Source: a phage. From it: DNA of 64,000 nucleotides. Numbering within the stretch: the stretch's first letter is position 1; each line of letters opens with the position of its first letter. Positions 4,752-8,778 of the stretch are shown piece by piece. The notes beneath the pieces are model-generated. The model did not search any database and was not told the DNA's origin. It saw nothing but the letters and a program-made list of their open reading frames with translations. Made by a program: the position numbers and the translations under genes. The stretch lies in NCBI GenBank assembly GCA_021469345.1, contig GCA_021469345.1_3049.1, one strand, 5' to 3'.

Positions 4752-5095
4752 ATAAAGTCAAATATTCGCTTCCTGAGTCATTTTTAATTTTTGCTGTGGC
4801 GTTGGCTGCAGCTCTTGCGGGTAGTCTTTTTGGATTATTAATTGACTGTCTTATTTTAAACATCGACGGCACAGTAAATATAACAGAAGTTTGGAGTGAA
4901 CTTCACTATACTAAAATTATTTCATTATTTTCATTCTTTGGTACCATGTTATATTTTCATTATGATAATTTTAAAATAAATTGGCAAAGAAAAAAGGATT
5001 ACAAAATACAATTAAAAGAATATAATAGCTACATGTCTTATATTGAAAATGAATCAATGAAAGAGTTTGTGAGTGATTGCAGGAAATTAAAATGA
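4733..5095 (+). CDS. hypothetical membrane protein
   Basis: ORF track; N-terminal hydrophobic helix. Confidence 0.5.
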   Translation: MQKPKLNKVKYSLPESFLIFAVALAAALAGSLFGLLIDCLILNIDGTVNITEVWSELHYTKIISLFSFFGTMLYFHYDNFKINWQRKKDYKIQLKEYNSYMSYIENESMKEFVSDCRKLK

Positions 5096-5532
5096 AAACA
5101 TTATCAGCTGGTATTATCTTCATGACAGAAGATAAAGATTTATTTATGGGTCGGGTCACTGGTTCTCGTAAGCCTGGAATGATGGCGCATCGCTGGGATA
5201 TTCCAAAAGGGCGTGTAGAAAGTTCTGATTTGAATGCACTGGAAGCTGCAAAAAGAGAATGCTTAGAAGAGACCGGTTTTAGCAATTATAATCCAGACCT
5301 TCTAGAAGACCTAGGTGTATTTAAATATTCTAGTAATAAAGACTTACAGTTATTTTATTATACGATTCCAGTAGAGCATGAGATGTTTAGAAATTGCCAT
5401 TGCGAGTCTTATTTTGAAAATAAAGATGGCGTTATGATTCCAGAGATGGATGCTTTTGCTCTTATTCCTCGTACTCAGTGGCAATATGTGATTGGCCCTT
5501 CACTTTACCGAATAATGAACAGCCTCTTTTAA
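5092..5532 (+). CDS. nudE: Nudix hydrolase
   Basis: Nudix box G-x5-E-x7-REcLEEtGf; position immediately upstream of e as T4 e.1; start trimmed to ATG 5092. Confidence 0.8.
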   Translation: MKTLSAGIIFMTEDKDLFMGRVTGSRKPGMMAHRWDIPKGRVESSDLNALEAAKRECLEETGFSNYNPDLLEDLGVFKYSSNKDLQLFYYTIPVEHEMFRNCHCESYFENKDGVMIPEMDAFALIPRTQWQYVIGPSLYRIMNSLF

Positions 5533-6063
<531 letters not shown>

Positions 6064-6097: not shown

Positions 6098-6158
6098 ATT
6101 TACAGTTACTTGAAGAGACAAATTATTAATTAAAATATTTTACATTTAAAGGAAACAT

Positions 6159-6632
6159 ATGAAAACATATCAAGAATTTATTACTGAAGCAGCTATTAAT
6201 TCTCAAATTATTGCTGAATCTTTTACTGATCTTTTGAAATTTAAAAAAGGCCAAAAAATCACTGCTGTATTGGATGATGGTACAGAAGTTGAGATGGATG
6301 TACAAGGATATAATTATGCAGTAGATGGAAAACTGTATAATAAATCTCATGCTAAATTTGATTCATTTGACGACTTTGTTAATACAGTTGAAGATGAAAA
6401 AACTCGTCGATCCATTGCAACTGGTGATGCTAAGGTTCTTATGGCACATGGTCATGAACGCATTCGCGCTAAACAGAATAAAATGGGTGAAGATAATTTT
6501 GCATTAGTTGGTTATCAATCTGGTAAACAAACCTATGGTTATCAGCGTACTGCTACCATGTATAATAAAAATGGTAAAATTGCCTTTGTGAATAGTAAGG
6601 GTTCTATTCAGTACGTTAAATCGTTCAAATAA
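6159..6632 (+). CDS. internal protein (ipIII-like) with capsid targeting sequence MKTYQEFITEA
   Basis: N-terminus matches T4 internal-protein CTS including gp21-type I-x-E cleavage context; position after e. Confidence 0.65.
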   Translation: MKTYQEFITEAAINSQIIAESFTDLLKFKKGQKITAVLDDGTEVEMDVQGYNYAVDGKLYNKSHAKFDSFDDFVNTVEDEKTRRSIATGDAKVLMAHGHERIRAKQNKMGEDNFALVGYQSGKQTYGYQRTATMYNKNGKIAFVNSKGSIQYVKSFK

Positions 6633-6785
6633 GCAAATAAGAAATATGGGAACAACCTGGACCTCATGATTCTGTGAGGGATTCCCGCCAACCTGTAATA
6701 AGGTCGAGCCCAAGTGCGGTAATGGGTAAATACAGAAATGGACAATTCATGCGCCACGGAATGGCCCAAACTTAGAGAGAATAAA

Positions 6786-7325
6786 ATGAGAACATTTTTA
6801 ACTGGTCCTTATCTATCCCTGATGAATGCTTTTACACACCATTCTGATGCTAGAGTAGAAGAAATTTGTAAAAACGATTATATCCCACCATTTGAAGATT
6901 TACTTAAAGAGTATTGTACACTTCGTATAGATGGTGGACGTCAATCTGGTAAATCAATTGCTGTGACTAATTTTGCTGCTAATTGGTTGTATGATGGCGG
7001 AACAGTTATTGTTCTTTCTAATACTTCAGCTTACGCTAAAATTTCTGCAAATAACATTAAAAAGGAATTTTCGCGTTATTCTAATGATGATATACGTTTT
7101 CGTTTATTTACTGATTCTGTGCGTAGTTTTATTGGTAATAAAGGAAGCAAGTTCAGAGGTTTATCGCTTTCGCGAATTTTGTATATAATTGACGAGCCTG
7201 TCAAATCTCCTGATATGGATAAGATTTATAGTGTCCATATTGACACTGTACACTACTGCTGTAATAGTAAATGTTGCATTGGTGGTATTACTCGTCCACA
7301 GTTTTTCGTAATCGGAATGCAATGA
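6786..7325 (+). CDS. small P-loop NTPase (Walker A GGRQSGKS, Walker B ILYIIDEP), Cys-rich C-terminus
   Basis: track ORF trimmed to ATG 6786 with GAGAGA SD; motifs read from translation. Confidence 0.6.
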   Translation: MRTFLTGPYLSLMNAFTHHSDARVEEICKNDYIPPFEDLLKEYCTLRIDGGRQSGKSIAVTNFAANWLYDGGTVIVLSNTSAYAKISANNIKKEFSRYSNDDIRFRLFTDSVRSFIGNKGSKFRGLSLSRILYIIDEPVKSPDMDKIYSVHIDTVHYCCNSKCCIGGITRPQFFVIGMQ

Positions 7326-7657
7326 TGACAGACACTCAGCTTTTCGAATATCTTTATTTTTCGCCAAAAACTATTAAAAATAAATTGGTGAATCATTTTG
7401 AAATTTTGGCAAAAATAACATTTTGAGCGAATTTTATCCTAAGCAATACAAATTACAAAAAGGCGTATTCAAAGGATGCAGAGTTTTGTGCACGGCTCCT
7501 AATGCACGGCTAATGAATAAAATTCCATATTTTACCATGGAATTTATTGATGGGCCTTTTAAAGGACTAATCACCCAAAGTTTAATGGCATATGATTCTG
7601 AGCCATTTTTAATTAAAGAACAATCTTGGATAAATTTATTTTCTAATTGAGGTTTAT

Positions 7658-8020
7658 ATGAAAGCATATCAAATTCTTGAAGGCACACACAAAGGTACTA
7701 TTTATTTTGAACACGGTATTCAAGCACGAATTATTGTCTCTAAAACCTTTAAAGAGGACTCTTTTGTAGACCCAGAAATTTTCTACGGTTTGCATGCCCG
7801 TGAAATTGAAATTGAGCAACAGCCTACAGTTAAAATTGAAGGTGGTCAACACCTGAACGTTAACGTTCTGCGTCGTGAAACTCTGGAAGATGCAGTTAAG
7901 CATCCGGAAAAATATCCGCAGCTGACCATCCGTGTATCCGGTTATGCAGTTCGCTTTAACTCTCTGACTCCGGAACAGCAGCGCGACGTTATCGCTCGTA
8001 CCTTTACCGAGAGTTTGTAA
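7658..8020 (+). CDS. autonomous glycyl-radical cofactor protein (GrcA/YfiD-like)
   Basis: C-terminal [25 protein letters not shown] glycyl-radical motif; a T4 homolog (Y06I) is described in the literature. Confidence 0.8.
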
Positions 8021-8241
8021 TGGCAAAGATAATTATTGAAGGTTCTGAAGATGTGCTAAATGCTTTCGCCGAATGGTTTAGTAATTCAGGCGAACAGCAA
8101 TTTAACGAAGCATGGAACATGGGTGATATTAATGGAATTTATCCTACTACAGAAATTTCTGTTCAGGGATATGGCATTCATGAACCTATTCGTTTAGTTG
8201 AATACGATTTATGTACTGGTGAGGAAGTCAAATATGATTGA
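8020..8241 (+). CDS. hypothetical protein
   Basis: ORF track; TAATG overlap with upstream stop. Confidence 0.5.
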   Translation: MAKIIIEGSEDVLNAFAEWFSNSGEQQFNEAWNMGDINGIYPTTEISVQGYGIHEPIRLVEYDLCTGEEVKYD

Positions 8242-8500: not shown

Positions 8501-8778
8501 TGGCTCAATTAAGCGCAGGGTTTGGTTATGAGTATTATACTGCCCCTCGTCGTGTATCTGTTGCTCCTAAGAAAATTCAAAGTCTTGATGACTTCCAGGA
8601 AGTAGTTCGTAACGCTTTCCAGGACTATGCACGTTATCTTAAAGAAGATTCACAGGACTGTCTCGAAGAAGATGAAATTGCTTACTATGAGCAGCGTCTT
8701 GAACAGCTCAAAAATCTACATGAGGTTCGTGCAGAAGTTTCAAAGTCTATGAATAAATTGATTAGATTTAAAGAATAA
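8500..8778 (+). CDS. hypothetical protein (92 aa)
   Basis: trimmed to ATG 8500. Confidence 0.5.

Follow-up and report, generated by a model that had tools for sequence, protein, structure and literature searches.

Phages encode several kinds of structured RNA close to their transfer RNA (tRNA) genes. The large GOLLD and ROOL RNAs are structured phage RNAs whose location correlates with tRNA genes, “theta” ribozymes resembling that of hepatitis delta virus (HDV) adjoin phage tRNAs, and the tRNA cluster of phage T4 contains two small stable RNAs, C and D, the function of which is unknown. The question of phage tRNA regions now centres on evasion of tRNA-cleaving host defences. Short non-coding units of another kind, the PeSL, are reportedly the mobile regulatory cassettes that Arbiol, Comeau and Krisch described in 2010 for T4-type phages; a PeSL consists of an early promoter and a stem-loop and is not known to be shared with rV5-like or N4-like phages. 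A module that docks the tRNA elbow, with two T-loops intercalated reciprocally and stacking on tRNA G19:C56, is found in ribonuclease P (RNase P, J11/12-J12/13), at the apex of T-box Stem I and in the L1 stalk of 23S rRNA. This head-to-tail (interdigitated) double T-loop motif has conserved residues AG..A and UG..A (PMC3664808), further examples of which were predicted to exist (PMC4810234); structures of GOLLD and ROOL are given in PMC12286853. Here we consider an element from a T4-like phage, 64,000 nucleotides (nt) of which were analysed as one window (GenBank assembly GCA_021469345.1, contig GCA_021469345.1_3049.1). A GC-rich segment of 153 nt (6633–6785) separates there the gene of internal virion protein Ip4 from gene vs.8. 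Comparison with other genomes suggests that this is a phage RNA motif, widely shared and not yet described, which the annotation of T4 hides within a hypothetical open reading frame (ORF).

BLAST with a 158-nt segment of this DNA returned 1033 phage records. Outside Tequatrovirus the conserved part narrows to a core of approximately 45 nt, CCUGUAAnAAGGUCnAGC-N5-6-GCGGUAA, which is nearly invariant across lineages as different as Tevenvirinae, rV5-like, phAPEC8-like and N4-like phages, a jumbo contig and metagenomic phages. In rV5 (Vequintavirus) and in PsgM04F, a relative of phAPEC8-like phages, it is 92–95% identical to that of the window and lies in unannotated DNA just upstream of the tRNA cluster and between tRNA-Thr and tRNA-Gly, respectively, the surroundings being in both cases unrelated to the window. 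A somewhat more divergent copy lies within a 1-kb non-coding gap after the tRNA cluster of KpCHEMY26 (Schitoviridae, N4-like). Pattern scans of IMG/VR and metagenomes added Jiaodavirus, other Tevenvirinae types, a 360-kb contig designated L342 (such L numbers mark the other loci hereafter) and about ten other lineages. Two relaxed gapped patterns applied to viral contigs gave mostly chance matches, from which filtering retained at least approximately ten new divergent members, and a scan of genome contigs with the 14-mer GTAATAAGGTCGAG gave at least 120 matches, those listed all being chance ones that lack the remainder of the motif. BLAST detected no copy of the element in 5,426 complete E. 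coli genomes, and the sole “plasmid” match to it is an E. coli record (CP057073) of 137.6 kb, rV5-like in size, that carries the rV5-type motif. By these comparisons the core (6681–6731) belongs to a family of common sequence and structure, present in more than 1000 phage records and at least five unrelated lineages. Its central 32 nt are identical in the window and in phage L007 though the vs.8 proteins of these phages are only 39% identical, which argues for selection at the nucleotide level, and about 25 nucleotides in the loops and junctions of the core come out as invariant. There is one copy in the window and one per locus elsewhere except for L186. No literature containing the core sequence or dealing with phage tRNA-cluster RNAs of this kind was found, in a coverage that was incomplete and leaves a prior description possible. 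Some host or type labels of the phage records MG065635, MG065662 and OR584014 and of plasmid record CP057073 seem doubtful: “Campylobacter” phages C12 and A142 are 99–100% rV5-like here, and “Pseudomonas” phage PsgM04F is 96% identical beside the element to an E. coli phage.

The features of the element and its immediate surroundings in the window are as follows:

6648–6686, + strand, lineage-specific 5′ hairpin domain: outer stem GGGAA 6648–6652/TTCCC 6682–6686, inner stem CCTCA 6662–6666/TGAGG 6675–6679
6681–6731, + strand, conserved core, a predicted three-way junction (covariance model R1, 65.3 bits, E 8.8e-21)
6688–6690/6723–6725, + strand, helix P1
6691–6694/6701–6704, + strand, helix P2 with loop GUAAUA (6695–6700)
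6705–6707, + strand, junction J2/3, CGA
6708–6709/6716–6717, + strand, helix P3 with a variable loop (6710–6715)
6718–6722, + strand, invariant GGUAA
6731–6735, + strand, UACAG, tentatively pairing to CUGUA 6693–6697 (pseudoknot or alternative)
6753–6765, + strand, Tevenvirinae-specific 3′ hairpin GCCA/UGGC with loop CGGAA, kept in T4-like members
6775–6788, + strand, Shine-Dalgarno-like GAGAG (6775–6779) and the putative true start of vs.8, ATG 6786, which is family-wide

The consensus of the core reads 5'-P1-A-[P2: CCU-GUAAnA-AGG]-UCnA-[P3: GC-N5-6-GC]-GGUAA-P1'-3', and model R1, anchored on the invariant core, has 51 positions and 10 pairs. Pair counts and covariation were estimated for 54 distinct sequences and compared with 500 shuffles. 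The fraction of paired cells was 88.5% versus 81.6% in shuffles and the covariation score was 0.223 versus 0.092, neither observed value being reached in any of the 500. The innermost pair of P1 is AU in 25 sequences, UA in 13, CG in 9 and UG in 7, and it is never unpaired. In P3 the pair is CG in 49 sequences and UA in four, which are of three types (L342; L358 and L399; the second copy of L186), while the outer pair of P2 is AU in 51, GC in 1 and GU in 1, with G-C in L381 and the second copy of L186, and G-U in L360. Three helices, P1, P2 and P3, each with compensatory substitutions, evidently frame the invariant loops. Within the helices G-U cells outnumber A-C cells (28 versus 13), and this excess favours the + strand. 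The T4-like contig L186 contains two tandem cores (5092–5140 and 5203–5253, − strand) about 110 nt apart, the second of which has compensatory changes both in P2 (G-C) and in P3 (U-A).

The domains flanking the core vary between lineages. Hairpin CCTCA-N8-TGAGG, picked out in a first-pass annotation of this DNA made from its letters alone, is indeed present as the inner stem of the 5′ domain with its 8-nt loop. T4-type relatives have compensatory variants of this domain (CCUUA/UAAGG in L160, GGGAG/CUCCC in L020), CACAU/AUGUG and CUACG/CGUAG occupy this position in rV5-like phages, and the counterparts of the inner hairpin in KpCHEMY26, PsgM04F and L342 types are GAGUG/CACUC, GAAUG/CAUUC, AAUGU/ACAUU and GUGUAU/AUACAC. 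A generic 5′ hairpin abutting P1 was, however, no better in 24 lineages than in shuffles (mean stem 5.1 versus 4.6 base pairs, bp) and is for this reason not claimed family-wide. The 3′ hairpin is varied as GGCA/UGCC, with two compensatory swaps, in L175 and as GCC/GGC in L209. The pairing of UACAG to CUGUA is retained in L020, where the variant UGCAG pairs through U-G, and other lineages have comparable 3′ complements at shifted positions (UUACA; AGGUUA). When the register is fixed, the pseudoknot between the loop of P2 (L2, GUAA) and the 3′ tail (UUAC) is paired in 56% of cells and shows no covariation; it may tentatively be regarded as lineage-specific. The loop of the Tevenvirinae 3′ hairpin exposes GGA (GCCA-CGGAA-UGGC here, AAGGAA in many relatives; 6740–6765), and a second motif, AUGGA, is situated about 15 nt upstream; the arrangement resembles paired CsrA-type GGA sites before the vs.8 ribosome-binding site.

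Linkage to tRNA genes was counted at 33 loci outside Tevenvirinae, in nine of which no tRNA was present within the DNA fetched. A tRNA on the same strand was registered within 1.7 kb at 24 of the 33 loci (within 1.2 kb at 23), and at none of them was the nearest tRNA on the opposite strand. Where tRNAs are present, the element is found at the margin of their cluster or within it. The distances in individual phages are exemplified by the following copies:

L198, element 35 nt after tRNA-Ser, followed by a hairpin and U-run terminator (by eye)
L342, element 42 nt after tRNA-Glu
L426, element 131 nt after tRNA-Lys
PsgM04F, element 121 nt after tRNA-Thr
rV5-like phages, element 510–570 nt before tRNA-Arg

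In rV5 an annotated sigma-70 promoter stands downstream of the element, which puts the latter at the 3′ side of a transcription unit and not in a leader there; promoter sequences of TTGACA type were noticed by eye downstream of it in L022 and PsgM04F. In the window the segment 6633–6785 contains neither a promoter-like hexamer pair nor a terminator-like site, and the sole tRNA is tRNA-Arg at 679–754 (ARAGORN, Rfam). Long non-coding arrays adjoin the tRNA clusters of KpCHEMY26 (L147, 2370–3370) and PsgM04F (L006, 1900–2340). Their units are bracketed by long complementary arms (AAGAGCAYUG...CAGUGCUCUU; GUUGUGAU...UCACAAC), the motif being one of these units, and the others may be further unannotated RNAs. 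In rV5-like phages a module YAGAGGGCUUGAWAGUGC is found on both sides of the motif (L005, 1880–1930; L022, ~8590–8640), which may represent another repeated RNA or a processing signal.

Rfam 15 (4227 models, including RNase P, T-box, tRNA, riboswitches and small ribozymes) gave no match overlapping 6633–6785, either at E ≤ 10 for this locus or at gathering thresholds for the whole window, and at seven other loci (L198, L147, L005, L006, L168, L184, L342; E ≤ 1) only tRNAs and noise were reported, none of them overlapping the element. With theta, GOLLD and ROOL it would share the character of a structured phage RNA near tRNA genes, but it gives no match to HDV-like, GOLLD or ROOL models, and the size of its core (~50 nt) and the pattern of invariant nucleotides are different. 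RNAs C and D of T4 are likewise phage-encoded, non-coding and tRNA-associated, but show no similarity to it in sequence or model, and the window includes the tRNA-Arg end of the cluster yet gives a single R1 match. PeSL are similar as short conserved non-coding stem-loop units that bound exchangeable cassettes in the hyperplastic region; the element, in contrast, has a core common to rV5-like and N4-like phages and no promoter, and lacking a promoter-like hexamer pair in 6633–6785 it does not qualify as a PeSL cassette. A tRNA or tRNA-like gene was considered as well and dismissed, as neither ARAGORN nor Rfam detected a cloverleaf. In ASO78A an intrinsic terminator is annotated over the hairpin, but what follows the hairpin is GATTCCCGCC, with no T-run, and no terminator-like site is predicted in 6633–6785. 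Antisense complementarity to 16S, 23S and 5S rRNA and to rnpB was no better than for shuffles.

Some analogy can be traced with the double T-loop module. The element has two pentamers that recall T-loops and that short helices would bring close to each other, and genomically it is linked to tRNAs. Its UGUAA agrees with the UG..A signature and varies in no more than two single sequences. The second pentamer, however, begins with G in place of A, the two loops come in the reverse order, and GGUAA occurs also as GAUAA (L148, L175) and with an inserted U, its G2 being therefore not invariant. With filters off, R1 found nothing in E. coli rnpB and the rrnH operon (7 bits at best). Homology to the specificity domain of RNase P (J11/12-P12) was abandoned, since R1 was negative and the shared 9-mer GUGCGGUAA is within chance. 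Because the second pentamer deviates and varies, the loop order is reversed and R1 is negative on rnpB and rRNA, the T-loop resemblance is a functional lead by analogy and not membership.

Based on these data the element can be characterized as being under strong purifying selection, structurally constrained, strand-specific, phage-restricted and linked to tRNA clusters. It is in our view rather probable that this is a structured RNA module not described before, transcribed together with tRNAs or early genes and binding a conserved partner by means of its invariant loops. RNA of the + strand would be a part of the early Ip4–vs.8 transcript in this phage and of tRNA-operon transcripts elsewhere, would fold as a compact three-way junction and would act via the invariant single-stranded UGUAA (L2), J2/3 and GGUAA (J3/1), binding one conserved macromolecular partner rather than regulating the adjacent gene. 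The likeliest partner, speculatively, might be a tRNA or pre-tRNA contacted via the T-loop-like pentamers, or a tRNA-recognising host enzyme or nuclease, for which the element would serve as a decoy or sponge. It is a tentative and rather unlikely extension of this reading that the element represents an unrecognised class of phage small RNA acting on the tRNA system, either by docking to the elbow of tRNA or pre-tRNA with a T-loop-type platform or by diverting, in the manner of a decoy or sponge, a host enzyme that targets tRNA or a defence nuclease. If true, this small RNA travels with phage tRNA clusters and belongs to an RNA toolkit for translation or counter-defence, unnoticed in T4.

A number of observations weigh against an RNA module of this kind. 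The minimum free energy of 6633–6790 does not differ from that of shuffled sequences on either strand (z = +0.62 and −0.62), so that the RNA folding suggested as a check in the first-pass annotation gives no thermodynamic signal, and a 5-bp hairpin by itself does not exceed chance expectation; it is the comparison with other phages, not thermodynamics, that argues for structure. The helices are very short (P1 3–5 bp with register shifts, P2 4 bp, P3 2 bp), P2 and P3 are almost invariant and draw their support from few sequences, and the outer pairs of P1 are unpaired in 26–57% of sequences. A control with a +1 slide has a covariation of 0.206, which is near the observed value because the register of P1 shifts by 1–2 nt between lineages, and a test of cognate versus non-cognate strands of P1 discriminates weakly since many lineages share CCC/GGG. 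Shuffle controls moreover overstate the significance, as many of the sequences are closely related. In T4-like phages the tRNA cluster and the element, which share a strand, are ~6 kb apart, the element lying downstream, beside vs.8. A discrete or stable RNA made from the element is what we infer, and the idea of a tRNA partner, which remains speculative, comes from genomic association and a loose resemblance of pentamers to T-loops. A structured RNA was one of two alternatives put forward in the first-pass annotation, and it is covariation together with conservation across phage families that speaks for it, in a sense which appears to be stronger than originally proposed.

The other alternative put forward there, acquired DNA, started from base composition. 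The GC content is atypical indeed, namely 45.1% in 6633–6785 and 48.4% in 6643–6770 versus 34.3% in the whole window, which places the segment at the 98.4th percentile of 153-nt windows, though 101 of the 6385 equal or exceed it. Together with the lack of ipII and denV this would suit a recent import of foreign DNA, with the GC-rich patch and the nucleoside triphosphatase (NTPase) gene brought in place of these two genes. Such a reading is refuted and has practically no chance to be correct, as both the patch and the ORF are syntenic and 92–95% identical in T4 and hundreds of Tequatrovirus genomes, the segment lies in T4 between denV and vs.8 and is 95% identical there, the GC content of vs.8 (34.1%) is usual for the genome, and it is the upstream Ip4 cassette that varies and not the segment. 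The GC maximum of the neighbourhood (50.7% at 7850–7999) falls inside vs.6/grcA (Pfam Gly_radical, E 2.6e-18), a glycyl-radical cofactor gene, where a peak fits a host-derived gene; local GC peaks are therefore not specific to the flagged segment. Equally hard to believe is a protein-coding role of the segment as an N-terminal extension of Vs.8, although it is annotated in this way in T4 (219 aa (amino acids), with the start inside the segment, NC_000866 64253–64912, L026 1754–2413) and in AR1 (195 aa, L001 3136–3723), the T4 frame is open from an ATG 26 nt after denV through vs.8, and in the window, as in AR1, an ATG at 6738 is in frame. The two extensions use different frames of the same DNA, a 1-nt indel apart just upstream of the vs.8 ATG, and in the window the T4-type one is in frame 2 (6674–6778), closed by TAG 6773–6775, while vs.8 is in frame 3. 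Across 145 nt stops in all three forward frames are present in 59 of 69 distinct variants of the element, any forward frame being open in only ten. Nearly all full-length homologues of vs.8, down to 21% identity, start with M-x-x-(F/L)-LT at the ATG equivalent to 6786, and in unrelated phages the same core is intergenic. Conserved coding sequence, envisaged as a possible outcome in the first-pass annotation, is thus annotated in T4 in a frame that is not conserved; because this frame is broken in the window and most relatives, the GC-rich region 6648–6770 is on this evidence non-coding, and it is native. The 219-aa and 195-aa annotations appear over-extended, the family-wide start being the methionine of MRTFLT, which leaves 179 aa. 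An action at the level of DNA would find some ground in the fact that similarity between the window (with Ip4 upstream) and T4 (with denV upstream) starts right after the stop codon of the upstream gene, at GGGAAC 6648, i.e. exactly at the 5′ end of the element. The exchangeable ip/denV cassette has its boundary here as well, still other cassettes stand upstream in other relatives, and the ip locus is accessory, its deletion in the laboratory being possible (PMC9391042). The element would then be a homology anchor or recombination boundary for cassette exchange, like PeSL, or a protein-binding DNA site. We find this very improbable, since compensatory changes and the 2:1 prevalence of G-U over A-C speak for single-stranded RNA, the orientation always agrees with that of neighbouring tRNAs, phages other than T4-like ones share only the 45-nt core and have no ip cassette, and unlike PeSL the element has no promoter consensus.

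If transcribed, the element may alternatively act in cis, marking or making the ends of transcripts beside tRNAs and between cistrons, so that cleavage by a host RNase or self-cleavage, possibly by a small ribozyme, lets flanking tRNAs and mRNAs mature and survive independently. Its occurrence at the borders of tRNA clusters, between cistrons and immediately ahead of terminators or promoters fits this, as do the compact junction with many invariant unpaired nucleotides, which has the look of a small ribozyme, the precedent of theta ribozymes beside phage tRNAs, and the arms GUUGUGAU...UCACAAC bracketing the copies of KpCHEMY26 and PsgM04F, which resemble RNase III stems. These arms are, however, lineage-specific, the distance to tRNA and the side of it vary from 35 nt downstream to ~570 nt upstream, no Rfam ribozyme family matches, and a plain nuclease site or exonuclease block needs no ~25 invariant nucleotides across unrelated phages. 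Processing or stabilization in cis is thus possible but not likely. A riboswitch-like aptamer in the 5′ leader of vs.8, through which a small ligand controls translation or transcription of this gene, is a distinctly improbable variant. A P1-closed junction of ~45 nt with invariant nucleotides in junctions and loops is a typical architecture of aptamers, in T4-like phages it stands directly upstream of vs.8, and mutually exclusive pairings can be drawn: the 5′ stem GGGAA/UUCCC overlaps the 5′ strand of P1, complements to ACCUG exist downstream, and the terminator of L198 has a 5′ arm to which the 3′ strand of P1 together with UUU might pair. The gene downstream is nevertheless not the same in different phages (vs.8, an ip gene in JD18, tRNAs, terminase genes in L426), in rV5 the annotated promoter separates the element from the next gene, as promoter-like sequences seen by eye may do in L022 and PsgM04F, the Shine-Dalgarno sequence of the window is not obviously sequestered, and there are no matches to Rfam riboswitches.

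For the partner-binding RNA module the consequences are several. T4 is the most thoroughly annotated phage, yet for ~40 years its records have shown the segment as the N-terminal part of a hypothetical protein. Should the segment be a functional RNA, the vs.8 annotations of T4, AR1 and RB phages need correction, and T4-like, rV5-like, phAPEC8-like, N4-like and jumbo phages share a new family, the 32-nt centre of which is more conserved than the neighbouring genes. Linkage to tRNA clusters would in this case offer a way into the role of phage tRNA regions beyond codon supply.

The phage of the window is a T4-like Tequatrovirus, ~97% identical to AR1, RB32 and RB14. Region 6100–7700 is 96–98% identical over its full length to AR1, RB32, RB14, Sf22 and ~300 other T4-like genomes; in megablast, where identity to AR1, RB32 and RB14 is 97–98%, the order annotated in these phages is Ip4, vs.8, vs.7, vs.6. 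In the window the genes are arranged as follows:

5077–5532, + strand, nudE
5569–6063, + strand, e, lysozyme
6159–6632, + strand, Ip4, internal virion protein (Pfam DUF7412, E 5.7e-96; phrog_3155 “internal virion protein”, E 6e-102)
6633–6785, + strand, 153-nt gap between Ip4 and vs.8
6786–7325, + strand, vs.8, 179 aa
7322–7650, + strand, vs.7
7658–8020, + strand, vs.6/grcA

AR1, RB32 and RB14 have Ip4 annotated at the equivalent of 6159–6632. The order in T4 is e, ipIII, ipII, denV, vs.8, vs.7, vs.6, and this difference implies an exchange of the internal-protein/denV cassette. Neither DenV nor IpIII of T4 has a match by tblastn in the whole 64-kb window, and the sole match of T4 IpII is the capsid-targeting N-terminus that Ip4 shares with it. 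The first-pass annotation was therefore right in that denV is not recognisable here; the upstream gene, which it took for an ipIII-like one, does code for an internal virion protein, but this protein is Ip4. What seemed an anomaly in place of the expected ipII and denV is the standard e–Ip4–vs.8 layout of RB32, RB14 and AR1 and not an insertion, Ip4 being evidently an exchangeable upstream cassette, so that a different internal-protein cassette stands for the ipIII–ipII–denV block of T4.

The ORF 6786–7325 does encode, as read initially, a protein of 179 aa with Walker A (GGRQSGKS), Walker B (ILYIIDEP) and a C-terminal HYCCNSKCC. It matches phrog_1488 (E 1.6e-79; residues 3–179 versus 2–177 of the 177 positions of the profile) and is the orthologue of conserved T4 gene vs.8, to the product of which (NP_049732) it is 92% identical over the 179-aa body (tblastn). 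Both have the same Walker motifs and the same synteny, directly upstream of vs.7 and vs.6 (grcA) as also in AR1; the T4 record differs in having 40 additional N-terminal residues from the RNA-like element, in a frame closed in the window and most relatives. The family, which occurs judging by its homologues in T4-like phages and similar metagenomic sequences, is small, with 41 representatives at 50% clustering, nearly all of 165–185 aa. Walker A, G(G)RQ[ST]GK[ST], and Walker B, hhhh[DE]EP, are near-invariant in it: among 31 sequences, down to 21% identity, G55, K56 and A59 are invariant or nearly so and [DE]EP follows a hydrophobic strand. The Cys-rich tail is absent from more distant members, and a functional role of it is not supported.

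The AlphaFold (AF2) model of this protein built on the 31-sequence alignment has a predicted local distance difference test score (pLDDT) of 86.3, whereas a shallow 12-sequence alignment gave an unusable model (44). With Foldseek the model resembled helicase domains of DSH9 and SLFN11, RecD, the large-terminase ATPase of P74-26, UvsW and KaiC (top matches with probability 0.97–1.0 and TMq 0.38–0.52, best E 2.6e-4), and there is a weak profile match to phrog_2 (terminase large subunit, E 6.5e-6). Because Walker A and B are near-invariant and the matches are to RecA-like/ASCE folds, the P-loop NTPase label given initially is correct, and the protein is by motifs and predicted fold a single-domain stand-alone P-loop (ASCE/RecA-like) NTPase. 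Domain 1 of SF1/SF2 helicases, large terminases and KaiC have the Walker motifs and the predicted alpha-beta-alpha fold in common with it (TM ~0.4–0.5), but vs.8 comprises only ~175 aa and has neither a second RecA lobe nor a nuclease or DNA-binding domain. The scores stay below the cut-off for every Pfam family; assignment to large-terminase ATPases (Terminase_6N) was given up at 12.9 bits versus a cut-off of 22 (E 0.087), and the protein is not placeable in any specific ATPase family. By sequence no significant match was obtained in the PDB, and no literature mentioning vs.8 was found. Comparison by hhalign with ORFs adjoining the element in KpCHEMY26 and rV5 gave probabilities of 0.1–0.2%, i.e. 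no protein link. The protein part of the locus is thus an ordinary, known conserved gene without assigned function. As a whole, of the initial interpretation the NTPase and the structured RNA are borne out, while the acquired DNA and the anomalous gene order are not, and the Cys-rich tail finds no support as a functional feature.

Two minor observations concern the genes downstream. In the window vs.7 is frameshifted, with 5 A in the run at 7411–7415 in place of 6 A in T4 and ASO78A, so that frame 2 encodes its 31 N-terminal aa and frame 1 the 80 C-terminal ones, which is either a real pseudogene or a sequencing error in the homopolymer. T4 Vs.5 (58 aa) maps onto 8020–8241 in two frames, where the window and AR1 have one intact ORF of 73 aa; the frameshifted version in this case seems to be that of the T4 reference and not of this phage.

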